DNA from: an uncultured Bacilli bacterium
GTDB lineage: Bacteria; Bacillota_I; Bacilli_A; RF39; UBA660
Direction of reading: 5' to 3'
Assembly: GCA_934096265.1 (NCBI GenBank)
Contig: CAKOLI010000001.1
Coordinates: 210,896-274,895 of the forward strand
Length of the DNA: 64,000 nucleotides
Positions 17,915 through 51,414 of the stretch are shown here, in pieces. The notes below the pieces were generated by a model. It worked only from the letters and a program-made list of their open reading frames with translations, did not search any database and was not told the DNA's origin. A program made the position numbers and the translations under genes. Each line of letters begins with the position of its first letter. Position 1 is the first letter of the stretch.

Positions 17915-17962
17915 TGTTTTAAAGATTGAGATTTTTATATTAGGATTTCAATCTTTTTTTGT
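17913..17962. repeat. 50-bp direct repeat, copy 1, containing the ppdK terminator hairpin
   Basis: AATGTTTTAAAGATTGAGATTTTTATATTAGGATTTCAATCTTTTTTTGT is identical to 28328-28377. Stem AAAGATTGAGAT / ATTTCAATCTTT followed by a T-run. Confidence 0.9.
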
Positions 17963-18114
17963 TTAAATTTAGATATGATTTTAAAAGTTTTATTTTGTGC
18001 TTTACATATTTTTTTTAAAAATGAAAATATTTAGATATATACTGAAAAAGTATGGTATAATAAAGATGATATACATAGTATGGCGTTAATTATAATGGAC
18101 TGGAGGATTACTGA

Positions 18115-18378: not shown

Positions 18379-18678
18379 GTGATATCTATGGATAGTTTAA
18401 GGATTAATTATGATGAAACTATTTCAGTGGGAAATCAAGTGTCAAATAAAGGAGGAGAATTTCAAGACCTTTTGACTAAAATTAAGTCTATTAATTCTGA
18501 ATTGAAGAGTTATTGGGAAGGTAGTGATGCTTCTAAATATGCGTCTGCTGTTGAACAACAATCTGTATATATGCAAGAACTTGCTGATACTATTAATGAA
18601 ATAGGTGGATTTTTAGTAAAAGTTGGGCAAGCATATCGTGAAGCTTGCCAAAATAATGCAAATGCTATTAAAGGTTAG
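18379..18678 (+). CDS. WXG100 family protein (EsxA-like)
   Basis: 99 aa helical hairpin with central W-x-G (YWEGSDA). Confidence 0.8.
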   Translation: MISMDSLRINYDETISVGNQVSNKGGEFQDLLTKIKSINSELKSYWEGSDASKYASAVEQQSVYMQELADTINEIGGFLVKVGQAYREACQNNANAIKG

Positions 18679-18689
18679 GAGGTTAAAAT

Positions 18690-18980
18690 ATGGATTTTTC
18701 TAAATTATCGTATGGTCAAGTCCAATCAATGGCGGAACAATTAAAGACTTCTGCAGATAAAATGGAAACTCTTTTAAGTGAAATTAAGACATTATTTGAT
18801 AAAATTGGAACAGATGATGTTTGGAGTGGAACAGCTGCGGCTGCTACTAAAGAAACATTTGATCAATTGAGTGCTAAATTTCCTGAGTTTTCTCAATCAA
18901 TAAGTGAATGTTCTACATACTTAGTATCTATGGTTGAAAATTATCAATCAGTTGATTCTATGGTTACAGGTGGTAAGTAA
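18690..18980 (+). CDS. WXG100 family protein
   Basis: 96 aa, central WSG (DVWSGTAA). Confidence 0.75.
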   Translation: MDFSKLSYGQVQSMAEQLKTSADKMETLLSEIKTLFDKIGTDDVWSGTAAAATKETFDQLSAKFPEFSQSISECSTYLVSMVENYQSVDSMVTGGK

Positions 18981-19061
18981 AATGAGCTCAAGTGAGCTCT
19001 TCTTACAGATGGATAATAATTCTTGATTACTATCTATCTGTGAGGAGTTGGGAGTGATAAA

Positions 19062-19355
19062 TTGAATATAGAGATAAATGTTTCAGATGTAGCAAGTTAT
19101 GGGAAACAGATGGTTGAGTGTTCTGGTATGTTTGATGATTCTGTAAAAGAATTTAATGCTTTGATAGATGCTATTAATACTATTTGGGATGGAGCAGATG
19201 CTTTAAAGTATGTAAATACTATGAGAGAGAAATATATTGTTGGGTTAAATGAGCTTAAAGAGTATATGTTAGAATATGGAACTTATTTACAGAAGGTGCC
19301 TGAGAGTTATTCGGCGCTTGATGAAGTGTTTTCATCAAAAAATATAGATGTGTGA
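19062..19355 (+). CDS. WXG100-like protein, possible Lap1-type LXG-effector targeting factor
   Basis: 97 aa, central WDG (TIWDGADA). Its stop overlaps the next gene's start by 4 bp (ATGA). Confidence 0.6.
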   Translation: MNIEINVSDVASYGKQMVECSGMFDDSVKEFNALIDAINTIWDGADALKYVNTMREKYIVGLNELKEYMLEYGTYLQKVPESYSALDEVFSSKNIDV

Positions 19356-19705
19356 GGTGGGGTATGAATATATCATATAGTCAAGTAGAATCACAATGTA
19401 ATCAATTACATGAAACAGCTAAAAAAATGAAGGATATATTAGATATGGTTTCAGAAATAAGAAAGAATGCTTGTAATAGTGCTTCTTGGAATGGAGAGGC
19501 ATCTAATGCATATTCAGAGAAATTAAGTTTGCTGATTGGAAGTTTTGATGAGGCATTTTTAGAGATAGAAAATAGTATTTTGTATATGGCTAGTTGTTCT
19601 TCTGGATATCAAGCATTAGATCAACGGGTAATGCAAGAGATTTGCTCTAATTTAAATATTACCGAACCTAATTTAAGTACGTCTAATATTTTTGGTGTTA
19701 ATTAG
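19352..19705 (+). CDS. WXG100-like protein, possible Lap-type targeting factor
   Basis: 117 aa, central WNG (SWNGEASNA). Translationally coupled to the upstream gene. Confidence 0.6.
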   Translation: MRWGMNISYSQVESQCNQLHETAKKMKDILDMVSEIRKNACNSASWNGEASNAYSEKLSLLIGSFDEAFLEIENSILYMASCSSGYQALDQRVMQEICSNLNITEPNLSTSNIFGVN

Positions 19706-19706
19706 T

Positions 19707-20192
19707 ATGGATTTTGAAAATGTAGATGTACCTAGTTTGGTAAATGCACTTACACAATGCAAAGATTCGATAGATTATAAGGCGTCTTTAGAGTTAATTA
19801 ATGATATATCAAATGTTTCTGTATGGCAATCTTCTTCACAATCAAATTTAAAAAATGCTCTAACGATACTTACCACGAATAGGTATACAGAACTTAAAGA
19901 TAAGATAGATTGTTATTTGACTGTAGCTTCTTATATAGCACAATATCAAAACTTAAGCAAAGAGAATATTCTTTTAAATAAGCAATATAATGATTTGTCT
20001 TATAAATTATATTATGAAGAAGAGTATGAAACTCCTGTTACTTTAGCAGATGGAACTGTAATTAATGAGATAAATACAAGAAAAGTTATGGATAAAAATA
20101 TAAATAATCAAATGAATAATATAAAAAATAAAATAGATAAAAATAAAGAAAAAATGGATGAATTAAAAAAAATAATATATAATTCTATTTAA
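19707..20192 (+). CDS. small helical T7SS-associated protein (possible Lap2/DUF3958-like)
   Basis: About 160 aa, predicted all-helical. Sits between the WXG-like genes and the effector. No specific motif recognised. Confidence 0.35.
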   Translation: MDFENVDVPSLVNALTQCKDSIDYKASLELINDISNVSVWQSSSQSNLKNALTILTTNRYTELKDKIDCYLTVASYIAQYQNLSKENILLNKQYNDLSYKLYYEEEYETPVTLADGTVINEINTRKVMDKNINNQMNNIKNKIDKNKEKMDELKKIIYNSI

Positions 20193-20205
20193 GGAGGAAA
20201 GAAAA

Positions 20206-20487
20206 ATGAATTATGAAAAATATTTACCTATAGGTACAGTTGTGATTTTAAAAAATGGTACAAAGAGGGTTATGATTACTGGTTTTTGTTCAATATCTAA
20301 TGGAGATAAATCAAAAGTTTTTGATTATTCTGGATGTTTGTATCCAGAAGGGTTTATTTCTTCTAATCAAACTTTGTTATTTAACCATGATCAAATAGAG
20401 AAAGTATTTTATTTGGGGTTTGTAGATGATGAAGAAAAAAACTTTAAAGCTAAATTAAATGAAATGCTAAAACAAATTAATCAATAA
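20206..20487 (+). CDS. DUF4176-like small protein (T7SS/LXG-associated family)
   Basis: 93 aa. Motifs LPIGTVVILKNG...VMITGF...GCLYPEGF...LFNHDQIEKVFYLGF fit my memory of the DUF4176 consensus. Confidence 0.55.
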   Translation: MNYEKYLPIGTVVILKNGTKRVMITGFCSISNGDKSKVFDYSGCLYPEGFISSNQTLLFNHDQIEKVFYLGFVDDEEKNFKAKLNEMLKQINQ

Positions 20488-20518
20488 TTTAATTAAATAT
20501 TTGGAAAGGAGTAAAAAA

Positions 20519-23365
20519 ATGAATGATATGTTCAAGATTAATGTTTCATTGTTAAAATCTTATGAAAGTAAATTTAATACAGAATTAAATAGTTTTAATA
20601 ATAAAACTTATGCTACCTTTTCATCTAGTTATTTAAATAGTTGTGCTGATGGTTGTGTTAGTAAGATGGCAAGCCAACTAGAAAAAATATATGAAACAAT
20701 AAAAAAAGGATATACAAATATTGATAAGTGGTGGATTGATTATAATGATAATGCTTCTGGGTTAGAAAATTATTTGTCTGGCAAAGGTAGTCTTGGATCA
20801 ATATCTGAAGCAAGTATTAGGAATAGTGCTAGTCAGTTACCTGAATTAAAAAAATATAATCTTGATTTTGCAGGGATTATTCCTGCTGGTATAGCTGGTG
20901 CAGAATATGGTATGGCGTTTGCTAATAACACGGTAGTATCTAGTGTTGGTACATTTGATACGATAGATTCTGAAGTTCCTTCTTTAGGCTCAGTAATATC
21001 TGATACAGTTGAGAGTGTATTTTCGGGTATTGCTGGTTGGTTTTCGTCTATACCTTGGTTAGAGAATGCCGCTAATTTTTATTGGAATATAATTAAATCT
21101 ACTGGTGCTACTTTGGCAGTTTTTGTTCAATCTTTAATTCAAGGAATAGGTCAGTTTGTAGAAGCAATAGTTGATCTTGTGGCTATTGTTGGTACTGCTG
21201 CTGCATCTATTGTAACTGGATTATGGGATGGTGGCCAAGCTATTTGGGGAGCAATAACTGGTGAAGATTGGGAATCTTTAACAAAAAAAATGTGGAATGG
21301 GACAATGGGGTTTGTTGCAACCCAATATGTTGTAGGTTGGATGGATTTATTATATCAAAATACTGGATATGGTCAATGGTTAGTTGATAATGCCCTAGGT
21401 TTTGATATTGTTAGAGGTATTGGGTCAGGAATAGGATATGTTGCTGGGATAGTAGCTTTAACTATTGCAACATTTGGAGTTGGAGGAGTCGCTGTTGCGG
21501 GAGGTAGTGCGGCCGCTGGAGGTGCTACTGCTGCCGCCGCTGGGAGTGCTACTGCCGCGGGTGGTATTACTATGTCTACTCAATTAGCAATAACTGCCAC
21601 GGCTGCTGGAATAGGAAAGGGCGTACAGAATGCTTGGGCTGATGGTGCAAGTTTAGTTAAAGGATTAATCGCCGGAATACTTAATGGCCTATGGGAAGGA
21701 TTTCAATTTTATATAGGTGGTAAAATTAGTGGCTTGAATATTTTTGGGGGAAAAGGCCTTTTAGAATCAGTAAAGCTTTCAGGTGTAGGTACACAAGTAT
21801 TGAATAGTCTTGGTCGTATAATTTTAGATGGTATTGATGGTGGCGCAGAAGGTTTTGTTACTCCTCTTATTCAGACTATATATAAAGATGGTTATTATGA
21901 TGAGAATGGAGAGTATGTTGAGTTTTCAGATGTTAAGAGTCTTTCTGATGTTTTCGAACGTTATGGTAAAATATTTGAGGAAAATGGTGGCTTTGTAAAT
22001 GTCTTGACGCAAGCTTCTGTTGGTGCAATATCTTCTTTGATAGGGGAACTGTTTGATTTAAGAAAATATTTTGGTAATAAGAAGAGTGAAAGTAAAGTTA
22101 ATATGACATCTGATGAGTTGCAAATAACGCTTGATAAATATAATGAATTAATGGAAATTAAAAATAGTGATGATTATAAGAAATATATGGATTTGAAGAA
22201 TAATAAGTTATTTAAAGGTTCTATGCCAGAGTTTGATGGTGTAGAAAATGAACTTGCATCTATTTCTCTTGAACTAGCGCGTTATAAGTATAATCAATTA
22301 GTAGAAATTAAAAATAGTGATGATTATATTTCGTATATGGATAATGTTAAGAATGGATATAATCAAACTCCAAGACCAGAATTTGATAATATAGAAATGG
22401 AGTTTAAGGCGGTAGAATCTGACTTGGCAAAGATGGTACGACAACAACAATTTAAAATAGAAAAAGATAATGCTTTAAATGAATTTCAAAAAGTGATTAA
22501 AAAGGGCAAAAAGAGTGATAAAGAAGCAATAGACCTTATGTATGAACTTTTTGATACTAGTATTGTAGATGAAAACTGGGATGCCTTGAATGCATTACAG
22601 GCATTTAATAAAGCTAAAGAGAAAAATCCTTCAATACATCTAACTTCACTTGATGGACGAAATTGCTATAGTCCTTATTCTTATTCTATAAATATTAATA
22701 AAGGCAATAAAGTAAAAGAATTTATGGCTCATGAATTAGGTCACTTGTTCCATTTTGAATTACTAGATGAGGTTACTCCTGATAATTTCAATATGCTACT
22801 TGATAATGCGCGAGCTAGTTTATCACCAGATTCAGTAACAAATCAATTTAGTAGTTATTATAATGAAGCTAAAAAAGAGTTTAACGATTTAGCATTAAAT
22901 GATTATTACACTTCTAAATTAGATTCTGATTTTTCTAGATTTTCTAGTATAGAGAATAAATCTCCTTATGTTAATATGACATATGATGAATTTCTAAAAG
23001 CATACACTGAAGACTTTGCAAAAAAACATCCTGAGGTTTCAGTAAGTGATTTAGAATATTTGACTACAAATGATATTAGAATGGATATTTATGCTGTAAA
23101 TACAGAATATATGTATGATAATGGCATTCAAGCACTTTCTGATATTTGTGATGCTTTTTTAAAAGGAAAACTTGATGTTCCAGGTGCACTGGGTCATGGT
23201 GTAGCGTATTATTCTCTTCCTGATGATAGAGAGTTTAAGGAAATGATTGCAAACTTTACTGCAATGAAAATTATGGGAAATAAAAAAACTTTACAAATGA
23301 CAAAAGAAATAATTGGTACATCATTGTATGATGTACTTGATGGTACTTTTAAGCAATTTAAGTAG
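20519..23365 (+). CDS. Large T7SS substrate: LXG-like N-terminal helical domain, glycine-zipper hydrophobic core and C-terminal HEXXH metallopeptidase-like domain (candidate polymorphic toxin)
   Basis: N-terminal about 120 aa helical with L-S-G (YLSGKGSLG). Residues about 120-400 are rich in GxxxG/AxxxG runs (GIGSGIGYVAGIVALTIATFGVGGVAVAGGSAAAGGATAAAAGSATAAGG). The C-terminal region has HELGHLFHFE. Start moved to the ATG after RBS GGAAAGGAG. Confidence 0.55.
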   Translation: MNDMFKINVSLLKSYESKFNTELNSFNNKTYATFSSSYLNSCADGCVSKMASQLEKIYETIKKGYTNIDKWWIDYNDNASGLENYLSGKGSLGSISEASIRNSASQLPELKKYNLDFAGIIPAGIAGAEYGMAFANNTVVSSVGTFDTIDSEVPSLGSVISDTVESVFSGIAGWFSSIPWLENAANFYWNIIKSTGATLAVFVQSLIQGIGQFVEAIVDLVAIVGTAAASIVTGLWDGGQAIWGAITGEDWESLTKKMWNGTMGFVATQYVVGWMDLLYQNTGYGQWLVDNALGFDIVRGIGSGIGYVAGIVALTIATFGVGGVAVAGGSAAAGGATAAAAGSATAAGGITMSTQLAITATAAGIGKGVQNAWADGASLVKGLIAGILNGLWEGFQFYIGGKISGLNIFGGKGLLESVKLSGVGTQVLNSLGRIILDGIDGGAEGFVTPLIQTIYKDGYYDENGEYVEFSDVKSLSDVFERYGKIFEENGGFVNVLTQASVGAISSLIGELFDLRKYFGNKKSESKVNMTSDELQITLDKYNELMEIKNSDDYKKYMDLKNNKLFKGSMPEFDGVENELASISLELARYKYNQLVEIKNSDDYISYMDNVKNGYNQTPRPEFDNIEMEFKAVESDLAKMVRQQQFKIEKDNALNEFQKVIKKGKKSDKEAIDLMYELFDTSIVDENWDALNALQAFNKAKEKNPSIHLTSLDGRNCYSPYSYSININKGNKVKEFMAHELGHLFHFELLDEVTPDNFNMLLDNARASLSPDSVTNQFSSYYNEAKKEFNDLALNDYYTSKLDSDFSRFSSIENKSPYVNMTYDEFLKAYTEDFAKKHPEVSVSDLEYLTTNDIRMDIYAVNTEYMYDNGIQALSDICDAFLKGKLDVPGALGHGVAYYSLPDDREFKEMIANFTAMKIMGNKKTLQMTKEIIGTSLYDVLDGTFKQFK

Positions 23366-23391
23366 GTAATTAAGGAAAGAGATGGTTATAT

Positions 23392-23634
23392 ATGGATGAT
23401 AAAGATAATAGATTGTTATGGAATATTTTGGAAGTTAAATATTTAAAAATGTTTGGTAGAGAGATTAGTTGTGATCCGAATGATAGTTATGACCTTTTTC
23501 CTTTAGGTTGGTATTTGGATATTGATGTTGATACAAAGATTAAAATTTTATTAGAGGCATTAGAGAATAATAAAAAAATAGTAGATACATCTTTATATCA
23601 AGATATGTTGAATGAAAGAGATAAAAGATTATAA
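23392..23634 (+). CDS. candidate immunity protein for the upstream effector (80 aa)
   Basis: Small ORF immediately 3' of the toxin C-terminal domain, the position typical of immunity genes. No homology recognised. Confidence 0.35.
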   Translation: MDDKDNRLLWNILEVKYLKMFGREISCDPNDSYDLFPLGWYLDIDVDTKIKILLEALENNKKIVDTSLYQDMLNERDKRL

Positions 23635-23694
23635 ATATATATCAGAATATATCAGACCTTTTTATGATGTTATTTTAGGAAGGAGTATAATACA

Positions 23695-26600
23695 ATGCGA
23701 GTTTCAACGATAAGGGCATTAAAAATTAATAATATACTGTTACCAGATAAGATAGAAGGGAATTATTGGATTGATGGTACTGATGATAATGGTATAAAAA
23801 GGAATTTAATATCTATAGAGTCTTATGATGGTAAATGGAGATTAATAAGTAATAAGGAAGTTTATTGTGTAGTAGCTGGGGAGAAGGTTCCATATATTAA
23901 TTTGGAAGAGGGTAAATTTTATTTAGTGGTTAATAGTGTAGCTAAGGAAAATTTATTGTTGTATTGTTCTTCTGTTTTGGCTAGTTATAATTGTTATGAT
24001 ATAGAAGAATTTTTGAAAGATGGAATAACTATTGGTAGTGAACCTAGTAATTTGATTACGTATTCTATTTTAGATTCTTTATGTGCTTGTATTAAATATG
24101 AAAAGGGAAATGTTTTTGTTGTAGATAATAAGTCAAGATGTGGTGTGTATGTAAATGATGTTAGAGTTATAGGAAAAAGGGAGTTAAAAATAGGGGATAT
24201 TATTTTTATTGCTGGTGTGAAGATTATATTTTCTATAAATTCTAAAAAGACTCATTGTATTTATGTTAATGATGGTTCTTTAAATGGAGTGGGTGTGAAA
24301 TTATCAAAAACTGTGGATATGCAAGTAGTTAATAATGATTTTTATGAATTAGAGCAGGAAGTGGAATATCCATTATATGATGAGAAAGATTATTTCCATA
24401 AGGTTCCTAGGTTTTTTCAAAAAGATGAGGCTTTAGTTTTACAAGTTGATCCACCTCCTGCGAAAGTAGATGAAGGGAATAATTCTTTATTATTGACAAT
24501 AGGTCCAATGATAACGATGTCTATGACTTCTTTGGTTACTGGTTATATGGCTTTAAATAATGTTTTAAATGGGGATGCTACTTGGGCTAAAGCGACACCT
24601 TCGTTAGTTATATGTGGCGCGATGTTTGCTAGTGTATTTATATGGCCTATATTTACTAAGTGGTATGATAAGAAAAATAGAATTAAGAATGAGTTGCTTA
24701 GGCAGCAAAAATATAGTGAGTATATAGAAGCTAAGAGGAAGATGATTATAGAAGCTAAAAACCAACAGACGGCAATATTGACAAATAATTATATAAATAT
24801 AAAAGAGGCTGTAGATACTATTTTAAGAAAATATACTGGGTTATGGCAACGTAGGATAGAAGATGATGACTTTTTAGATGTAAATTTGGGATATGGAAGT
24901 TATCCAATGAAAATTGATATTAAGTATCCAGAAGAAAGGTTTTCAATGGTTGAGGATAATCTAAAGGATATGGTATTAAAGTTAGGGCAAGAGCCTAAGT
25001 TGTTGTTAAATGTACCAGTTGTGTTTTCTTTAAGGGAAGCTTTTATAAGTGGTATAATTGGTGGGTATGAAATTAATGAGTTTACTAGAAGGTTGTTAAT
25101 TCAAATACTTGCTTTACATAGTTATGATGATTTGAAAATTGTTTTTTTGACTGATGAAGAAAAAGAATCTGAATGGAAGGTATTTAAACAGGTTCCTCAT
25201 TGCTTTTCTGATGATAAGAGTTTAAGATTTTTCGCGACAAATAATGATGAATATAAAGAGGTTTGTTATTATTTAGATAAGATTTTTGATTATAGAAAAG
25301 AAAAGTCTAATACGGATAGTAAGATAAATAGTTTTAATCAATCTTTTTTAATAGTGACAGATAGTTTTAAGAAGATTAGGAATTTTGATATTATTAAAGA
25401 TATTTTGGAGAGTAAGAAATATTATGGTTTTAGTATTTTGATTTTAGATAATAAGATAACTAATTTGCCTGATCAATGTTCTGATTTTATAAGTTTAAGT
25501 AAGGATAATGGGGAACTTAGAAATAATAAGAATATAACTGAAAGTATTAAATTTTCGGTGGATTTATTATCAAGTGTTGATTATGATGGTTGTGTTAAGG
25601 CATTAGCTAATATTCCAATAGAATTGTCTTTAGATGATGAAAACCAAATTGCCTCTAAGATAGGTTTTTTAGAGATGTATGATGTTGGGAAGATAGAACA
25701 GTTGAATTCTCCGACTAGGTGGGTTAAAAATAATCCAATTTTAAATTTGCAAGTTCCGGTTGGTATTGGTAAAAGTGGGGAAAAGATTACGATTGATTTG
25801 CATGAGAAGTATCATGGTCCACATGGGTTAATTGCTGGTATGACGGGAAGTGGGAAGTCAGAGTTTATTATTACGTATATTTTATCAATGGCTATAAATT
25901 ATCATCCATATGAAGTTCAGTTTATTTTGATTGATTATAAAGGTGGAGGATTAGCGGGGGCTTTTGAGAATAGTAGTACTGGATTAAAGTTACCACATTT
26001 GGTTGGAACTATTACTAATTTGGATGCTAATGAGATAAAGAGGAGTCTTGCTTCTATTGATTTTGAGTTAAAAAGAAGGCAAGCATTATTTAATACTGCA
26101 AGGGAATTTTCTGGAGAGGGTACAATTGATATTTATAAGTATCAAAAGATGTATAGAGATGGTATTGTTAAGGAACCTGTTTCACATTTGTTTATTATAT
26201 GTGATGAGTTTGCAGAATTAAAGAGTCAGCAACCAGAGTTTATGGCACAGTTAATTTCAACAGCACGTATTGGTCGTTCTTTAGGGGTGCATTTGATTTT
26301 AGCTACGCAAAAGCCAAGTGGTGTGGTCGATCCCCAAATATGGAGTAATACAAGATTTAGAGTATGTATGAGGGTGCAAGATAAGTCTGATTCAAATGAG
26401 GTTATTAAATGTCCTGATGCTGCATATTTAAAGCAAACAGGAAGGTTTTATTTTCAAGTAGGGTTTAATGAAGTGTTTTTACTAGGACAAGCTGCTTATG
26501 CTGGTGGGAAATATATTCCATCTGAAAAGGTAACTAAGACAATAGATACAACTATTAATTTTATTGATAATATTGGTTATACGATTAAGAAGGTTGATAC

Positions 26601-28326
26601 TAAGGTTAAAACTGATACTGTAGTTGTGGATATTGGAGAGGAATTAAGTAATATAGTAAAATATTTAGATAATATTGCAAAGGAACAAAATATTAAATGT
26701 AGGCCATTATGGTTGGAGAAGATTCCAGAGGATATTAGAATAGAGAATTTGGCTTTAAAATATAAATATGAGAAAGAAGAATATATAATTAATCCAATTA
26801 TTGGGGAATATGATATACCTTCAAGGCAAGAACAAGCTTTGTTAACTTTGCCATTATCAAAAGAGGGTAATGCATTGATTTATGGTTCTTCAGGAAGTGG
26901 TAAAGAAAACTTTATTACAACATTGCTTTATTCATCTAGTATGTATTATTCACCAGAAGAGGTAAATTATTATGTAGTTGATTTTGGTTCTGAAGTTTTA
27001 AGGATGTTTAATGATTATCCAATTGTAGGTGATATATTAGATTCAGATGATGAAGAGAAAATTAAAAATTTATATAAGATGTTAAACGCGACGATTGAAG
27101 AGAGAAAGATTTTATTTTCTGAATATAATGGAGATTATTATACTTATTGTAAGAATAATGGTAAGGCTATTCCAAGTATTGTAGTAGTTATAAATAATTA
27201 TGAGTCATATCAAGAAACATATCCAGAGTTTGATGATATGCTTATTGTATTATCAAGGGAGTGTAATAAATATGGTATATTCTTTGTGCTTACTGTTAAT
27301 ACTCCGAATGGGTTACGTTTTAAGTTAAGACAAAATTTTTCGTTAACATATGTATTGCAACAAAATAGTAATGATGATTATACAACTATTTTAGGTAATG
27401 TATATAAAAATTATCCTGCAAAGATTTTTGGTAGAGGGATTTTTAAGACGGATGATGTATATGAATTTCAAACTGCTTTGGTAAGTGATAAGGATAATAT
27501 TATTAAATATGTAAAAGATAAGAAAAATGAGTTAAAGAATAAATATTCTACTATGGCTAAGCGAATTCCTGTTTTGCCTAATGTTGTGGATTATTCTTCA
27601 ATATATAAAGATTTTGGTAAGTCATCATCTTTAATTATTGGTATTGATAAATCTTCTTTGAAAATATGTAAATTTGATTTTAATAAAAATTATTTAACTA
27701 TAATTTCAATGTTGGATTTAACTGCAAGTAGTAATTTTTTAAATCCATTTATAAATCAAATTATTGCTAATAATAATTCAATGTTATTTGTTATAAATGC
27801 TTCTGATGACGAGATAGATGATAAGTATAAATCACAATATCAGTATGTTGATCATCAATTTAATGAGGTTTTTGTTAATTTATTAAATTTTGTGAAAGAG
27901 CAATATGATGGTTATGTTAAAAATGATTATAATAAGAATATTTTTAATAATATGAGGAAGGTATATTGTATTATAATAGGGATTGATTCTTTTAAGATGC
28001 GTCTTAATGATGATAACAAGAGTAAATTTGCTGATTTATTTATAAACGGTAAGGATTTAGGTATAATTAGTTTTATAATTGTAGATAGTATTGATCAGAT
28101 TAGAAAGGTAGAGATGGAATCTTGGTATAAAAATTGTGTTAATAACAATTTTGGTATTTGGATAGGTAATGGTATAAATGATCAGTTTAGTTTGAGGATA
28201 AGTCAAAAGATTGAAGAGATGAAAGAAGATGTTCCGAATAATTTCTGTTTTGTAATTAAACGCGGTAGGGTTCAATATGTAAAATTCGTTGAAAAATTAG
28301 AGTTAGATATTAAAAGTAATGAGTAA
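23695..28326 (+). CDS. essC: T7SS FtsK/SpoIIIE-family ATPase EssC/YukBA
   Basis: 1543 aa. N-terminal FHA-like region, 2 TM segments (about aa 270-320), three P-loop ATPase domains (GMTGSGKSE; LILATQKPSGVVD; degenerate GSSGSGKEN). Confidence 0.9.
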   Translation: MRVSTIRALKINNILLPDKIEGNYWIDGTDDNGIKRNLISIESYDGKWRLISNKEVYCVVAGEKVPYINLEEGKFYLVVNSVAKENLLLYCSSVLASYNCYDIEEFLKDGITIGSEPSNLITYSILDSLCACIKYEKGNVFVVDNKSRCGVYVNDVRVIGKRELKIGDIIFIAGVKIIFSINSKKTHCIYVNDGSLNGVGVKLSKTVDMQVVNNDFYELEQEVEYPLYDEKDYFHKVPRFFQKDEALVLQVDPPPAKVDEGNNSLLLTIGPMITMSMTSLVTGYMALNNVLNGDATWAKATPSLVICGAMFASVFIWPIFTKWYDKKNRIKNELLRQQKYSEYIEAKRKMIIEAKNQQTAILTNNYINIKEAVDTILRKYTGLWQRRIEDDDFLDVNLGYGSYPMKIDIKYPEERFSMVEDNLKDMVLKLGQEPKLLLNVPVVFSLREAFISGIIGGYEINEFTRRLLIQILALHSYDDLKIVFLTDEEKESEWKVFKQVPHCFSDDKSLRFFATNNDEYKEVCYYLDKIFDYRKEKSNTDSKINSFNQSFLIVTDSFKKIRNFDIIKDILESKKYYGFSILILDNKITNLPDQCSDFISLSKDNGELRNNKNITESIKFSVDLLSSVDYDGCVKALANIPIELSLDDENQIASKIGFLEMYDVGKIEQLNSPTRWVKNNPILNLQVPVGIGKSGEKITIDLHEKYHGPHGLIAGMTGSGKSEFIITYILSMAINYHPYEVQFILIDYKGGGLAGAFENSSTGLKLPHLVGTITNLDANEIKRSLASIDFELKRRQALFNTAREFSGEGTIDIYKYQKMYRDGIVKEPVSHLFIICDEFAELKSQQPEFMAQLISTARIGRSLGVHLILATQKPSGVVDPQIWSNTRFRVCMRVQDKSDSNEVIKCPDAAYLKQTGRFYFQVGFNEVFLLGQAAYAGGKYIPSEKVTKTIDTTINFIDNIGYTIKKVDTKVKTDTVVVDIGEELSNIVKYLDNIAKEQNIKCRPLWLEKIPEDIRIENLALKYKYEKEEYIINPIIGEYDIPSRQEQALLTLPLSKEGNALIYGSSGSGKENFITTLLYSSSMYYSPEEVNYYVVDFGSEVLRMFNDYPIVGDILDSDDEEKIKNLYKMLNATIEERKILFSEYNGDYYTYCKNNGKAIPSIVVVINNYESYQETYPEFDDMLIVLSRECNKYGIFFVLTVNTPNGLRFKLRQNFSLTYVLQQNSNDDYTTILGNVYKNYPAKIFGRGIFKTDDVYEFQTALVSDKDNIIKYVKDKKNELKNKYSTMAKRIPVLPNVVDYSSIYKDFGKSSSLIIGIDKSSLKICKFDFNKNYLTIISMLDLTASSNFLNPFINQIIANNNSMLFVINASDDEIDDKYKSQYQYVDHQFNEVFVNLLNFVKEQYDGYVKNDYNKNIFNNMRKVYCIIIGIDSFKMRLNDDNKSKFADLFINGKDLGIISFIIVDSIDQIRKVEMESWYKNCVNNNFGIWIGNGINDQFSLRISQKIEEMKEDVPNNFCFVIKRGRVQYVKFVEKLELDIKSNE

Positions 28327-28327
28327 G

Positions 28328-28377
28328 AATGTTTTAAAGATTGAGATTTTTATATTAGGATTTCAATCTTTTTTTGT
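28328..28377. repeat. 50-bp direct repeat, copy 2 (terminator hairpin after essC)
   Basis: Identical to 17913-17962. Confidence 0.9.
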
Positions 28378-28437
28378 ATAGGGGAGTAGAAATAATGTTA
28401 ATTATTTGATATAATGTTTATAGTAGGAGTGATTGAT

Positions 28438-37812: not shown

Positions 37813-37837
37813 TTTATAAGATAAATATATAAAAATA

Positions 37838-38135
37838 TATTTACTAATAATTAAATTTATGATATGATTAGTTCATAAAATAAGTGAATTTAAAAGTTAG
37901 AAAAAATTCGCAAATTTTTGATAAAAATTAATAAGATTTTAGGAGTTGATAGTGATGAGTAATGTTAACCAAAAATGTCCTAAAACCCTTATTTTACTAG
38001 GGGGGGGGGCAATTACAAATCCTTATAAATAAAGGGTTTAAGCCTCATTTTAACTATCAAAAATATATAAATCTATATTAGAGATATAGCTATTTTAGTT
38101 ATATTTTTTGATATAGTTTTTTTATATTTAATTAG
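37838..38135. repeat. Conserved about 300-bp upstream element, copy 1, with G10 tract (38000-38009) inside a 25-codon mini-ORF (37955-38032)
   Basis: About 90% identical to 49282-49582. Mini-ORF MSNVNQKCPKTLILLGGGAITNPYK is preceded by AGGAG 9 nt upstream. Confidence 0.85.
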
Positions 38136-38220
38136 TAGTATCTTATTAGTTAATTCTACACATTTTTAAATTATAATGTGGTATGATAATTTTAATGATA
38201 GAAAGGGAGTAAGAAAATAT

Positions 38221-40155
38221 ATGGATAATAACAAGAGAATATATTTAATAATAGGAGTAATAACTATTACTATGCTAATAATGGGAGCAACTACTGCGTG
38301 GTTTACTTGGAATAGTACAGATAATACAGATGTAACGTTTAATGTAGAAGGTTTAGATATTACTTATACAGGAGATGAAAATGTATTAAATAAAAAGCTA
38401 TATCCTACATCCTCGATGACTAATACTGATAATGTAATACATAAATTTAGCCTAGTAACTACATCTAATATAGATATATATACTAAAATATCATTAGATA
38501 TAATAAAACTAGATGATAACTTAAAAGATGTATCATTTAGATGGAACTTATATAAAGAAGATACATCTATTGCCAGTGGTAACTTTAGTAATGCTACAGT
38601 AGGTAGCGATGTACTACTTACTCAAGCAATGATAACAACTACATCAACTAATTACACATTATTTATCTGGATAGATGGAGAAAACTACAGTAACCCAATA
38701 GCCATGGGAGATAAAGAGTTTTATTTTAAATTAAAACTAGAAGCAGGCCAACAGGTATATCTTACTCCAGAAGAGTGCTTTAACTTTGATGAAAGTACTG
38801 GTACTATAACTAGTTATTTGTGCACTAGTGGTAATAGCAATAATTTACCAACTATAACGGATGTAGTAATACCTAGCGAAATTAATGGAGTAACAGTAAC
38901 TGCAATAAAAACTTGGGCATTTGTTAATCGTAATTTAACAAGCGTAACAATACCAGACAGTGTAATAACAATAGGAATGTATGCGTTTAATAATAACAAG
39001 CTAACAAGTATAAAAATCCCAAATAGTGTAACAACAATAGGCAGTTCTGCTTTTGGTAGAAACAACATAACAAGTATTTATATTCCAGATAGTGTAACTT
39101 CAATAGATGGTAATATAATTACTTATAATCCTAGTTTAGCAAGTATAACGGTATCCCCAAATAATAAAGTATACGATAGCAGAGACAATTCAAATGCAAT
39201 AATAGAAACATCTAGTAATACATTAATACAAGGATGTAAAAATACTATTATACCTAATACAGTTACCTCTATAGGACGTTCTTCTTTTTCTGGTAATGAT
39301 TTAGCAAGTATAACAATTCCAAATAGTGTAACAACAATAGGCAGTTCTGCTTTTTACACAAATAAACTAACAAGCATAACAATTCCAAATAGTGTAACAA
39401 CAATAGGTGGTAATGCTTTTGGGGGAAACGAAATAGCAAACATTTACATTCCAGAAAATGTAACTTCAATAGGTAGTAATGTGCTTGCTGTTAATCCTAG
39501 TTTAGCAAGTATAACGGTATCGCCCAATAATAAAGTATATGATAGTAGAAATAATTCAAATGCAATAATAGAAACATCTAGTAATAAATTAATACAAGGA
39601 TGTAAAAATACTGTTATACCTAATACGGTTGTATCAATAGGATATTTAGCCTTTGGTGGTTTAAATTTAACAAGTATAACAATACCAGACAGTGTCACAA
39701 CAATAGGTGATAATGTCTTTCAAGATAACAATTTAACAAGTATAACAATTCCAGACACTGTCACATCAATTGGAGACGAAGCTTTTCAATATAACAATTT
39801 AACAAGTATAACAATTTCAAATAGTGTAACAACAATAGGGTACCGTACATTTTATAATAATAATTTAACAAGTGTAACAATTCCAGATAACGTTACAACA
39901 ATAAAATATGAAGCCTTTGCTGATAACAATTTAACAACTGTGTATATAGGTAAAAATTCCAAACTAAGCAGCCTAGGGCGTAGTACCTTTGGTTCAACCT
40001 CATCATCTAACACTAACTTGTCTAAAATATACAATCTAGGTAGTAAATCATTAAATTGGAACTTAGCAATAACGGGTACATCTGGTACCGCTTTCGTAAG
40101 TGGCACAGTAACAACCTCTGATGGAAGAACAGTAACTATAACAACTAGTGAGTAA
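38221..40155 (+). CDS. Paralog C. SipW-cognate-like signal, TasA-like N-domain, BspA-type leucine-rich repeats (LRR_5); no lectin-like C-domain.
   Basis: N-terminus MDNNKRIYLIIGVITITMLIMGATTAWFTWNST. At least 12 repeats of the form ITIPNSVTTIGSSAF-N-LTS. N-terminal 200 aa homologous to the 49603 gene product. Confidence 0.65.
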   Translation: MDNNKRIYLIIGVITITMLIMGATTAWFTWNSTDNTDVTFNVEGLDITYTGDENVLNKKLYPTSSMTNTDNVIHKFSLVTTSNIDIYTKISLDIIKLDDNLKDVSFRWNLYKEDTSIASGNFSNATVGSDVLLTQAMITTTSTNYTLFIWIDGENYSNPIAMGDKEFYFKLKLEAGQQVYLTPEECFNFDESTGTITSYLCTSGNSNNLPTITDVVIPSEINGVTVTAIKTWAFVNRNLTSVTIPDSVITIGMYAFNNNKLTSIKIPNSVTTIGSSAFGRNNITSIYIPDSVTSIDGNIITYNPSLASITVSPNNKVYDSRDNSNAIIETSSNTLIQGCKNTIIPNTVTSIGRSSFSGNDLASITIPNSVTTIGSSAFYTNKLTSITIPNSVTTIGGNAFGGNEIANIYIPENVTSIGSNVLAVNPSLASITVSPNNKVYDSRNNSNAIIETSSNKLIQGCKNTVIPNTVVSIGYLAFGGLNLTSITIPDSVTTIGDNVFQDNNLTSITIPDTVTSIGDEAFQYNNLTSITISNSVTTIGYRTFYNNNLTSVTIPDNVTTIKYEAFADNNLTTVYIGKNSKLSSLGRSTFGSTSSSNTNLSKIYNLGSKSLNWNLAITGTSGTAFVSGTVTTSDGRTVTITTSE

Positions 40156-48201: not shown

Positions 48202-49273
48202 GATATTTTTATTTATAGTAAGTGTGTTTATGTTTACTAACTTAGTTAGTGCAGAAGAGGTTAGTGAGGTTAATAATACTGATAAGCATAGTTTTAATTA
48301 TTTAAGTAAGGATACAGTAGACTTTAATGATGAAGTGGACGCTAGTAGCGTGGTATTTGGTGATAAGGTTAATTTTGGTGGAGTAATAAAGGGAGTAAAT
48401 TTATTATTTGGTAATAATGTTACTTATACTGGTACTAGTAGTTATATGGCTTTATTTGGTAATAATGTTAAAGTAAGTGGGAATTTACTTAATGATGGAG
48501 CAGTATTTGGTAATTATATAGTATTTGATAGCAATGCAGTTGTTAATAGAGATATAGTGATATTTGGTAATAATGTGGTATTATCTGGTACATTTAATAG
48601 AGATGTTAGAGTGTATGCTTCATCTTTATCACTTGATGGTGTAAGTATTTTGGGTAATGTATATGTTAGTGCAAATAATGTTAAGTTAGATAAAGAAAGT
48701 AGTGTAGATGGATATTTTAAATATAATGAAGATACTAATCTTACTAATAATAACAATAATTTAAAATTAGAGTCTTATAAGGTAGAAGTAGAAAAACAAG
48801 ATATATGGGATGTAGTTAAAAGATATATAGGTAGTTTTTTAAGTTATGTTTTTATACTTGCTGTTATGTTAATTATATATCCTAAGTTATTTAATAAGTT
48901 AAATAAGAATACATTAGATGTAAATACAGTTTTAAAGAGAATGGGAGTAGGATTAGGAGTATTGGTTTTAGTACCTATATGTATTTTAATATTAATATTT
49001 TCATCTTTAGGAGGATATGTAGGAGTAGTAATAGGATTAATATATATATTTTTAATTATGATATCTGGTTTAATTACTAGTTATACTATAGGTAGAATTA
49101 TTAGTAATAAGTTAATGAAAAAAGAGATATCTAATTATTTAGTTGGTATAATAGGTATAGTATGTGTAAGTATTATTTTATTAATACCAGTAGTAGGTGG
49201 TATATTTGGCTTCTTATCACTTATATATGGTCTAGGTCAATTAATAGTAATGTTTAAAAATGTAAGGAATTAG
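48185..49273 (+). CDS. exported beta-helix-repeat protein with C-terminal polytopic membrane domain
   Basis: Signal peptide. Repeated (V/I)xFGNNVxxxG motifs (bactofilin/DUF342-like). Four C-terminal TM helices. Confidence 0.45.
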   Translation: MKKISKIFLFIVSVFMFTNLVSAEEVSEVNNTDKHSFNYLSKDTVDFNDEVDASSVVFGDKVNFGGVIKGVNLLFGNNVTYTGTSSYMALFGNNVKVSGNLLNDGAVFGNYIVFDSNAVVNRDIVIFGNNVVLSGTFNRDVRVYASSLSLDGVSILGNVYVSANNVKLDKESSVDGYFKYNEDTNLTNNNNNLKLESYKVEVEKQDIWDVVKRYIGSFLSYVFILAVMLIIYPKLFNKLNKNTLDVNTVLKRMGVGLGVLVLVPICILILIFSSLGGYVGVVIGLIYIFLIMISGLITSYTIGRIISNKLMKKEISNYLVGIIGIVCVSIILLIPVVGGIFGFLSLIYGLGQLIVMFKNVRN

Positions 49274-49281
49274 TAAAAATG

Positions 49282-49582
49282 TATTTACTAAAAATTAATT
49301 TTATGATATGATTAGTTCATAAAATAAGTGAATTGAAAAATGCCAAAAATTCACAAGTTTTGATAAAAATTAATAAGATTTTAGGAGTTGATAGTGATGA
49401 GTAAAGTTAACTATAAGTGCTCTAAAACCCTTATTTCACTAGGGGGGGGGGCAATTACAAAGCCTTATAAATAAAGGACTTAAGCCTCATTTTAACTATC
49501 AAAAAAACACATATAAATCTATATTAGAGATATAGCTATTTTTAGCTTGTATTTTTAATGTAGATTTTTTTATATTTAAATA
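49282..49582. repeat. Conserved about 300-bp upstream element, copy 2, with G10 tract (49442-49451) inside a 25-codon mini-ORF (49397-49474)
   Basis: Mini-ORF MSKVNYKCSKTLISLGGGAITKPYK, with the same RBS and spacing as copy 1. Confidence 0.85.
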
Positions 49583-49602
49583 AAAGAAGGAGAGTGTTGT
49601 AC

Positions 49603-51414
49603 ATGGATAATAATAAGAGAGTATACTTAATAATAGGAGTAATAACTATTACAATGTTAGTTATGGGAGTAACTACTGCATGGTTTACTTGGAATAGTAC
49701 TACTAATACAGATGTAACATTTAATGTTAATGGGTTAGATATTATTAATACTAATGTAGATATAATAGGTAAGAAGTTATATCCTACAAATAATAAAGAA
49801 AACGGAGTAGTAGAAGAGTTTACTGTTAAACAAAACAGTGAGATATCTACACCAGTATGTAGTGATTTTACTCTTACATTAACTACACTACCTATAGAAC
49901 TACAACATAAGAGTTTTAAATATAAACTATATAATGGAACTAGTTTAGTAGGAAGTGGTAACTTTGAAGGTAAAACACAAGGACAAGTAATAACTATTGC
50001 AACAAGTCAACCTGTTACAAGTGAGATATCTACATATAAATTATACATTTGGATAGATGGTAATATGGATAATCCTTTATCTATGGGAGGAAAAAGTTTT
50101 CTGTTTAAACTAACTATTAAAGCAAACCAACAAGAAAATGCATGTACACCTAGCATTATAACTTGTGATGCAGATGATGTAACACCAAACACTCCAGTTC
50201 TTGCTGATGGCATGATACCGATTAAATGGGATGGTTCTAAATGGGTAAAAGCAAGTACTGATAATTGGTATAATTATAGTAATAAAGAGTGGGCAAATGC
50301 TGTGATGGTTAGAACAGATAAGGATTCTAATGTTAATGGTTCTAGGTCTAGAGAACAATATATGAGTGCTGATGAAGGCACAAAAATATTAGAGAGTGAT
50401 ATATTAGCTTATTATGTATGGATACCAAGATATAAGTATCAATTATTTAATGTAAATTCTGAAAGCATGGACCCGATAGAAATATGCACTCAGTTTGAAG
50501 ATAAAGATACTACAAAGTCTACTGGAAATACAAATGGTGCTTGGCTTACCCATCCTGCGTTTACTTTTTGTACTGATGAATTATCAGGTATCTGGGTAGG
50601 CAAGTTTGAAACTAGTGTGGATGATAACGATGCATGTTATGGTAGCGTATCGCCTGCTAATTGTAATAAGGAATTAAATAACCCTAGAATAAAACCGAAT
50701 AAGTCATCTTTATTAGAACAACGAGTTATAAATCAGTTTTTGACATCTAAGAAGTTTGGTACTATTGACTATTTAACATCAGATGGAGTAAGTATGGTAG
50801 ATGCACATATGATGAAAAATACAGAATGGGGAGCAGTAGCATACTTAAAACAAAGTAAATATGGATTAGGTACTACTGATATAGCAATCAATGCGTATGA
50901 TAGAGGTGTTAACTCATATGTTTTCTTTATGACAGGATGTGGACCTGCGAGTGAAACTGATTTAACAAATGAAACAACAACATGTACAAGTTATACAAGT
51001 AGTGTAGGGATTAAAGCATCTACCACAGGTAATATTACAGGTATATACGATATGGCAGGTGGAGCATCTGAAAATGTAATGGGAGTAATGAAAAATACTG
51101 ATGGAACAGGCCTTACTTATTCATCTTCTGGATTTGCGGAAAGTACACTACCTTTAGGAAGTAAATATGTAGACGCATATACGTATGGAACATCTGATGC
51201 TGATTATACAAGAAGAATACTAGGAGATGCAACAGGAGAAACAAGAGGATGGTATTCAGACTATGCTTCCTTTCTTAATGATTCCACTTTTTCATTCTTT
51301 TCTCGTGGACTTATTTCTTACAATGGGTCTTCTGCGGGCGTGTTCACCTTTGCTCGCTCTACCGGAGGTATAAGCAATGCCTATTCCTTCCGTTCCACCT
51401 TGGCAACTCAGTAG
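49603..51414 (+). CDS. Paralog D. C-type N-terminus (shared with the 38221 gene) fused to the A/B-type conserved lectin-like C-domain.
   Basis: N-terminus MDNNKRVYLIIGVITITMLVMGVTTAWFTWNST. From about 50190 the sequence is about 90% identical to 12410-12730 (paralog B). 50925-51110 is about 93% identical to 11275-11460 (paralog A). Confidence 0.65.
   Translation: MDNNKRVYLIIGVITITMLVMGVTTAWFTWNSTTNTDVTFNVNGLDIINTNVDIIGKKLYPTNNKENGVVEEFTVKQNSEISTPVCSDFTLTLTTLPIELQHKSFKYKLYNGTSLVGSGNFEGKTQGQVITIATSQPVTSEISTYKLYIWIDGNMDNPLSMGGKSFLFKLTIKANQQENACTPSIITCDADDVTPNTPVLADGMIPIKWDGSKWVKASTDNWYNYSNKEWANAVMVRTDKDSNVNGSRSREQYMSADEGTKILESDILAYYVWIPRYKYQLFNVNSESMDPIEICTQFEDKDTTKSTGNTNGAWLTHPAFTFCTDELSGIWVGKFETSVDDNDACYGSVSPANCNKELNNPRIKPNKSSLLEQRVINQFLTSKKFGTIDYLTSDGVSMVDAHMMKNTEWGAVAYLKQSKYGLGTTDIAINAYDRGVNSYVFFMTGCGPASETDLTNETTTCTSYTSSVGIKASTTGNITGIYDMAGGASENVMGVMKNTDGTGLTYSSSGFAESTLPLGSKYVDAYTYGTSDADYTRRILGDATGETRGWYSDYASFLNDSTFSFFSRGLISYNGSSAGVFTFARSTGGISNAYSFRSTLATQ

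Follow-up and report, generated by a model that had tools for sequence, protein, structure and literature searches.

A candidate phase-variable transcription attenuator, with a G homopolymer in its leader ORF, upstream of surface-protein genes in uncultured gut Bacilli

Introduction

The pil1 and pil3 loci of S. gallolyticus carry GCAGA repeats within a leader-peptide gene that is followed by a stem-loop terminator (Danne et al. 2014, PMC3894217). The short leader, whose stop codon lies 39 bp before the terminator, goes with low expression, while out-of-frame repeat variants place the stop within or after the hairpin and give high expression; the short-frame stop is at least 28 nt upstream of the hairpin, ribosomes melt the terminator, and the effect is lost on mutation of the ATG, insertion of a stop or deletion of the terminator (PMC3894217). 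In the literature that we searched, S. gallolyticus provides the only case in which a repeat in a leader ORF is combined with a terminator in this way. At cwpV of C. difficile, a recombinase inverts a 195-bp segment in a site-specific manner (Emerson et al. 2009, PMC2784873), and phase variation of the surface protein is set in the leader, 3' of the promoter, by formation of an intrinsic terminator. The bmrB-bmrCD locus of B. subtilis is governed by ribosome-mediated transcriptional attenuation, which responds to ribosome-targeting antibiotics via alternative stem-loops (Reilman et al. 2014, PMC4191407). Here too, and in a member of the Bacilli, translation of a leader ORF governs an intrinsic terminator located inside the leader or at its end; unlike the element described below, bmrB has neither a hypermutable tract nor heritable ON and OFF states. 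Homopolymers in promoter spacers are a further route to phase variation, as in vlp of Mycoplasma hyorhinis and in porA and opc of Neisseria.

Gut Bacilli of the clade considered here are common in human guts and uncultured, and we know of no work on variation of their surfaces. The subject of this study is an element of about 300 nt that occurs twice in a 64-kb stretch of DNA from such a bacterium (the whole of which we call the window), once upstream of gene C and once upstream of gene D. The window is chromosomal, with about 30% GC, a very strong GC skew and nearly all genes on one strand, and the neighbouring genes are of the housekeeping kind (xfp, tyrS, rpsD, relA, dtd, a GT4 glycosyltransferase, mraZ/rsmH, ftsL and a PBP). 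The closest relatives of its RelA, at 78% identity or less, belong to uncultured gut MAGs labelled Bacilli, 'Tenericutes', Clostridium sp. CAG:302, Firmicutes CAG:321 and Acholeplasma sp. CAG:878; names such as CAG:302 we take to stand for the uncultured order RF39.

Results

Anatomy of the element

The copy upstream of gene D (copy 2) has the following parts, all on the plus strand.

49284..49312, + strand: candidate promoter P1, TTTACT, 17 nt, TGaTATGAT (extended -10), with 9 of 12 consensus matches and the TG
49328..49354, + strand: inverted repeat GTGAATT-N13-AATTCAC in the 5' UTR, between P1 and the leader RBS, predicted to form an RNA hairpin
49383..49387, + strand: RBS of the leader ORF, AGGAG, 9 nt 5' of the ATG
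49397..49474, + strand: leader mini-ORF in the short frame (G10), 25 aa, MSKVNYKCSKTLISLGGGAITKPYK, from ATG 49397 to TAA 49472-49474
49442..49451, + strand: G10 homopolymer, the proposed slipped-strand switch
49466..49474, + strand: TATAAATAA, a two-frame 'frame trap'
49501..49507, + strand: poly-A run, A7 here and A4, A5 or longer elsewhere
49518..49564, + strand: terminator hairpin, 47 nt, about 21-24 bp, AU-rich, identified by folding
49533..49535, + strand: TAG stop of the long frame (G9, 45 aa), 15 nt into the 5' arm and 6 nt short of the hairpin apex
49565..49571, + strand: U7 tail of the terminator
49588..49592, + strand: RBS of gene D, whose ATG is at 49603
49603..51414, + strand: gene D, 603 aa, N-terminal hydrophobic anchor, no Pfam or NCBIfam match and no informative match by sequence in the PDB

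P1 is kept in all copies of the element, as judged by its match to the consensus. The tract lies 130 nt 3' of P1 and ends 151 nt 5' of the ATG of gene D, and no reading frame connects the leader with the gene; a classical intragenic frameshift switch was rejected, the tract being outside the coding sequence of gene D. Only 31 nt separate the end of the U run (49571) from the ATG (49603), which leaves no space for a separate gene D promoter. Within TATAAATAA, the TAA at 49472-49474 ends the G10 frame and the TAA at 49468-49470, 4 nt earlier, ends the G11 frame, so that only G9 stays open; indels in the poly-A run then determine which of two TAG codons in the hairpin terminates the long frame. 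The tract codings GGGGGGGGGG and GGTGGAGGTG specify the same peptide.

The inverted repeat of the 5' UTR could act as an RNA hairpin or as an operator. A small hairpin is also found directly 3' of the tract, at 49452-49482 in copy 2 and 38010-38040 in copy 1, with stems AAGCCUU/AAGGACUU and AAUCCUU/AAGGGUU respectively, so that the changes on the two arms are linked; its loop contains the short-frame stops, and it may be a pause site.

Copy 1, upstream of gene C, spans 37830-38134 and has about 90% identity to copy 2 across about 300 nt. The match runs on for about 150 nt, covering the first 50 or so codons, into genes C and D at 87%. Its parts are as follows.

37840..37868, + strand: candidate promoter P1
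37884-37911: the same inverted repeat, GTGAATT-N13-AATTCAC
37955..38032, + strand: leader mini-ORF, 25 aa, with G10 at 38000-38009
38072..38123, + strand: terminator, comprising the hairpin (38072-38116) and U7 (38117-38123)
38134..38201, + strand: 68-nt segment between terminator and gene C, missing in copy 2, with a P1-like extended -10, TGgTATGAT, at 38179-38187
38221..40155, + strand: gene C, a BspA-type leucine-rich-repeat (LRR) surface protein, whose first ~50 codons are common with gene D

With one G fewer, the leader of copy 1 would have 41 codons and end at the TAG at 38079-38081. Proteins C, D, A and B have N-terminal hydrophobic anchors followed by TTAWFTW. The two copies contain the only runs of eight or more G in the 64-kb window, where shuffled sequence gave a mean of 0.42 matching positions and reached the observed count in none of 100 shuffles.

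The 68-nt segment recurs in nine further contigs (L001, L003, L007, L099, L098, L100, L103, L104 and L107) and is polymorphic at one genomic site, being present in L107 and missing from L106. From its sequence it may be a bypass promoter, P2, or alternatively it may be a trace of recombination between copies; were the promoter active, the copies that bear the insert would escape the attenuator.

Translation of the leader appears to be under constraint, its peptide sequence less evidently so

The first-pass annotation of the window had described the G10 tract and mini-ORF of copy 2, with their RBS, frame and stop and a synonymous TGT to TGC change relative to copy 1, and all of these details hold. 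It had also described the peptide as conserved despite nucleotide divergence, which overstates the case: 8 of 78 nt differ between the two ORFs, six of the changes alter five residues, and two (AAA to AAG and TGT to TGC) are synonymous. That the mini-ORF is genuine is borne out by the block comprising RBS and ATG, the least variable part of the element, with one variable column in 18 across 17 unique copies. Codons 2-14, by contrast with this block, vary in 11 of 39 columns, as much as the non-coding parts do, and the comparison of substitution classes that had been suggested as a check gave 10 non-synonymous to 5 synonymous changes against 33:9 sites, with no clear purifying selection. Long-form C-termini differ from copy to copy through indels (NYQKYINLY as against IYKSILEI). 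Of the proposal that the peptide or its translation is functional, the second half thus fares better, since translation and the position of its stop are conserved while the peptide sequence is without visible selection; it appears from these comparisons that translation is under selection and the peptide sequence is not. A functional peptide family was rejected as a candidate, neither the short nor the long forms matching Pfam or NCBIfam.

The terminator hairpin

The folding energy of the copy 2 hairpin is -23.7 kcal/mol (z = -6.95), a value matched by no shuffled sequence out of 200. Across ten distinct alleles, pairing is retained at nearly all variable stem positions: the changes are mostly U-A/U.G and G-C/G.U exchanges, with one double change from G-C to A-U, and pairing is broken only at basal and loop-closing pairs. 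Such pairing-preserving changes point to an RNA structure on the plus strand. A simple terminator scan had missed the hairpin, which is AU-rich, because the scan demands three G-C pairs; it was found by folding instead. The RBS of the gene follows 19-38 nt after the terminator in copy 2 and in the diverged contigs L020, L095 and L097. Rfam gave no match at gathering score in the window and none at E <= 1 in 49250-49650, and a riboswitch or other known RNA leader was discarded on this ground.

The hairpin and the third frame, both absent from the first-pass annotation, explain how a separate mini-ORF could control the gene that follows it.

Tract length and reading frame at other loci of the species

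Contigs from human gut metagenomes were fetched via rpsD, the upstream gene, fragments of the downstream genes and called long leader ORFs. Among those of this species the element occupies at least seven genomic sites.

Site C: LRR gene downstream; G10, with G9 in L005
Site D: gene D or its replacements downstream; G10
Site after ABC2/HAD genes: D-like gene downstream; G10
Site after a Rhomboid gene: LRR gene downstream; AGAGGA or GGATGG
Site after an Abhydrolase gene: 622-aa LRR gene downstream; G10 or G11
Site directly after the 622-aa LRR gene: 75-aa/442-aa operon downstream; GGAGGG
Site after gpr: LRR gene downstream; G9

Every further copy has an intact ORF and a downstream gene on the same strand, as the idea of a functional element had predicted. 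A further suggested check was whether each copy precedes a gene with a SipW-type signal. This found no support: proteins C, D, A and B gave no match at E <= 0.1 to an NCBIfam SipW-dependent signal model (which we take to be TIGR04088, and whose presence in the library is assumed), and one copy precedes the 75-aa/442-aa operon and not a signal-anchored protein.

In a frame-unbiased sample of 20, the tract, read as assembly consensus values, is G10 in 17 and G9, G11 and interrupted in one each. G9, G10 and G11 all occur in DNA at homologous sites, and G12 can be deduced from a called peptide (P0020). Site C has G9 or G10 between flanks that are 99.5% identical, and the Abhydrolase site has G10 or G11; in L005, 99.5% identical to copy 1, the G9 tract opens a 41-aa ORF that ends at the TAG of copy 1. 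Since tract length varies between near-identical strains, independent switching of several surface genes is the best reading, in line with the first-pass annotation's view of C and D; its four surface states are an underestimate, given the number of loci that carry the element.

The called long-frame peptides imply G9 (nine clusters), G12 and interrupted tracts, along with two G10 alleles that are in the long frame through a compensating shift downstream. All interrupted tracts, namely GGATGG, AGAGGA, GGAGGG and, in L097, GGGGAGGGG, are in the long frame and none in the short; the three of 6 nt may share one origin event. A 12-nt insertion in L098 and L100 likewise leaves the long frame open. 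All 25 instances from the species and the three diverged lineages have one or more frames that, past the tract, end inside the hairpin. By shuffling, the chance of any frame staying open is 0.2-0.4 per lineage, which makes this a modest statistic alone. The long-frame stop lies 6-15 nt into the 5' arm, except in L095 and L020, where the 3' arm contains it, and the short-frame stops lie 34-59 nt 5' of the hairpin in all but two alleles (L096 and L100), whose trap is without one stop, so that a second frame also gets to the hairpin base.

In comparison with L001-L010, the genes at sites C and D are swapped among strains for others of 595-736 aa, LRR or non-LRR, while the flanking housekeeping genes are identical; in 7 of 10 strains site C has a different gene and no element. 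Both sites resemble hypervariable cassette loci. Several contigs end at the G tract, shortly before it or within gene D (L008:1-160, L009:1-148, L010:15255 and the ends of L092 and L093), which could be due to the repeat copies or to heterogeneity within samples.

Diverged relatives and a sister leader family

On three diverged contigs (L095, L020 and L097) the downstream proteins are 39-66% identical to protein D, or unrelated, and the leaders have no alignable sequence while retaining the same architecture: an RBS, a small ORF with a G run, stops in two frames made of TAA/TAG, a long hairpin with a U run, a second RBS and the gene for a signal-anchored protein.

L095: G9
L020: G8; the contig begins within the ORF
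L097: GGGGAGGGG; 39-aa ORF ending at the hairpin apex

The TAAATAA core of the trap is kept in L095 and L020, and L097 has a different two-frame trap.

With the predicted long leader of L095 as query, 102 clusters were matched, of which 97 share the C-terminus TNRNISLSL, which is translated hairpin. Their tracts are at about G5, G8, G11 and G14, a single in-frame length class that is partly expected, since gene callers pick up just the long ORFs. Hundreds of contigs carry some of the members, none of which has a name beyond 'hypothetical'. This family and that of the species' own element can be aligned colinearly, and an exhaustive profile search returned only 22 representative clusters, which restricts the leader family to a narrow sequence set. 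An exact 20-mer of the RBS/start block had no match in GTDB representative genomes, a set that does not include the species, and the element is in none of the syntenic relA loci from 80 related species; a G-tract match in a JGI metagenome was put aside as chance, as it falls inside an unrelated CDS (prepilin-peptidase-like by eye). Runs of seven or more G or C number only four in 1.23 Mb from the 80 related genomes, and two of these are just 5' of surface-protein genes. One MAG of the same clade, from roe-deer gut, has G9 within the 19 nt that separate a perfect TTGACA from TGaTATAAT (L056:169-199), upstream of a signal-anchored protein gene; judged by its sequence, this is classical promoter-spacer phase variation, and a different design. 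Just 5' of its leader, L095 also has an IS-like insertion (676-1470), flanked by inverted copies of GATCCCAAATAATTCGCAA and containing what by eye is the N-terminal remnant of a zinc-ribbon transposase-like protein.

Discussion

In our judgement the 300-nt element is probably a phase-variable transcription attenuator. Transcription would start at P1 and the leader mini-ORF would be translated, in a frame set by the length of the G tract, which slipped-strand mispairing alters. With G10 or G11, ribosomes would stop at TATAAATAA, 41-50 nt 5' of the hairpin and its U7 tail, the terminator would form, and most P1 transcripts would end before the surface gene (OFF, or low). With G9, G12 or G6 the frame is open, and ribosomes would enter the 5' arm of the hairpin and melt the terminator, allowing read-through into the gene (ON). 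As the copies would switch separately, a clonal population would comprise many combinations of LRR and other surface proteins. What we observed directly is the anatomy, the pairing-preserving hairpin changes, the tract polymorphism, the frame geometry in diverged relatives and the locked long alleles; from these we infer the activity of P1, the efficiency of the terminator, the coupling of ribosome and polymerase, and the assignment of ON and OFF. Ribosome-polymerase coupling is reportedly weak in Bacillus subtilis. The predominance of G10 would fit a mostly OFF population, as in pil1, and could just as well reflect selection for G10 as the functional state.

This mechanism was derived from the anatomy before we came upon the description of pil1 and pil3, and the likeness is close. 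Both have a promoter, a translated leader ORF with a hypermutable repeat, an intrinsic terminator and one or more genes for surface structures; the distance from the short-leader stop to the hairpin is about 39 bp in pil1 and 41-50 nt here, leaders in a shifted frame end within the hairpin, the majority state is the short or low one, and there is more than one switch locus per genome. Natural S. gallolyticus isolates with long leaders resemble the 'locked' alleles seen here. The differences are equally plain, in that there is no sequence similarity, and the repeat is a G homopolymer where pil1 and pil3 have GCAGA. Only one frame in three is long here, TAAATAA trapping the other two, whereas both out-of-frame classes are long in pil1 and pil3; the host is an uncultured gut member of the Bacilli, the targets are LRR/BspA-like and unknown proteins and not pili, and the present system, which is known from sequence alone, occupies at least seven loci and has a sister family on hundreds of contigs. 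Given the homopolymer and the lack of GCAGA repeats, the element is, on this comparison, best described as an independent analogue of the pil1-type switch and not a homologue.

The likeness to cwpV is in where and how expression would be set, and here the variable part is a homopolymer within a translated ORF. An invertible-DNA switch was ruled out: no inverted copy occurs in more than 25 instances, all 29 BLAST matches are colinear, and flanking inverted repeats are limited to one weak pair (22 nt, 73% complementary). Promoter-spacer systems share with the element a homopolymer 5' of a surface gene and length changes by slipped-strand mispairing, and differ from it in that the tract lies between -35 and -10 and not in a translated leader ORF.

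Four other explanations deserve to be weighed against attenuation. The long-frame ORF (41-52 aa) might encode a functional small protein, itself phase-varied, with the hairpin merely its terminator and the surface genes expressed independently, via P2 or by constitutive read-through. P1, RBS, ORF and terminator would indeed make a complete small gene, whose long form gene callers report in more than 100 clusters; there is a possible P2 between terminator and gene in many copies, and the colinear alignment of the two leader families would also suit a protein. We nevertheless think it unlikely, because the long C-terminus depends on indels, codons 2-14 are without clear purifying selection, the invariant end of the sister family is just translated hairpin, Pfam and NCBIfam hold no matching family, and in copy 2, L020, L095 and L097 the surface gene has no space for a promoter of its own. 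Our doubt is stronger for the suggestion that the tract is a switch of RNA properties or of transcription initiation and does not work through leader translation. It might be a promoter spacer, on one strand or the other, or act as the poly-G 5' of uspA1 reportedly does in Moraxella catarrhalis. In favour of this, the roe-deer MAG has its G9 in a promoter spacer 5' of a similar gene, and on the minus strand of copy 1 a match, TTGTAA-16-TAAAAT, spans the tract. Yet no -35/-10 pair flanks the tract on the plus strand in either copy, which disposes of a plus-strand spacer, and a minus-strand promoter across the C tract was rejected because its -10 is polymorphic (T/C) at the essential A2, which copy 2 and half of the alleles have lost; control of initiation would besides leave the conserved RBS and ATG, the frame trap and the long-frame interrupted tracts unexplained.

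The two remaining explanations do without phase variation, and we hold both to be very improbable. In a genome of 30% GC the glycine codon GGG is rare, and three of these codons might stall ribosomes in a physiological attenuator that couples read-through to translation capacity, the length of the tract being fixed by selection. The G10 consensus of most assemblies would agree with this, as would the influence of rare codons on the bmrB attenuator (PMC4191407), but locked alleles keep the leader without a GGG run, length variants are common, and a ribosome that stalls in the tract would be 66 nt short of the hairpin and leave the terminator unshielded. The other is that there is no switch at all: the element would be a duplicated 5' region in which an ORF occurs by chance, and the length differences would be errors of assembly or sequencing. 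Homopolymers are prone to error in consensus assemblies, and L008, L009 and L010 break at or near the tract; against this, the architecture is kept in lineages without alignable sequence, G or C runs of seven or more are almost missing elsewhere in related genomes, interrupted tracts are all in one frame, and the called long peptides have only in-frame lengths, although this last is partly expected where only long ORFs are called.

Attenuation thus remains our preferred reading. We are evenly divided on a broader claim, by which an entire uncultured lineage of the human gut relies mainly on this cassette for phase variation, the cassette having spread to at least seven loci per species and persisted across species. 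If so, it will have spread jointly with the 5' end that codes for the signal anchor, at least 30 combinatorial surface states would be available, constitutive alleles would evolve by long-frame interruption of the tract, and related species would carry the cassette on hundreds of metagenome contigs. It would also be the second, independently evolved, instance of attenuation by a repeat in a leader, and the first with a homopolymer and a dedicated two-frame stop trap, which suggests that the combination of leader-ORF repeat and terminator is a recurrent solution and not a curiosity. Gene callers miss the short leader or label the long one a hypothetical protein. Such a switch would be readable from sequence, tract length modulo 3 predicting ON or OFF for each adhesin-like gene, and phase states could consequently be read directly from metagenomes.

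Other features of the window

GC skew is 0.23-0.56 in nearly all 2-kb windows, with genes mostly on the plus strand, and falls to about 0.06-0.3 over the surface genes A, B, C and D. At 9-2461 there are two tandem paralogues of a PcsB-like M23 peptidoglycan hydrolase, about 80% identical in DNA. A type VII secretion-like cluster occupies 18379-28326 and includes a 1543-aa FtsK/SpoIIIE protein with an FHA domain (23695-28326), whose gene is preceded by several ORFs of about 95 aa and by one for a 954-aa protein without a family match. A 56-nt repeat, 96% identical between its two copies, follows the ppdK-like gene (17910-17965) and the FtsK/SpoIIIE-family gene (28325-28380); it contains a hairpin and a T run, and the two are probably duplicated terminators.
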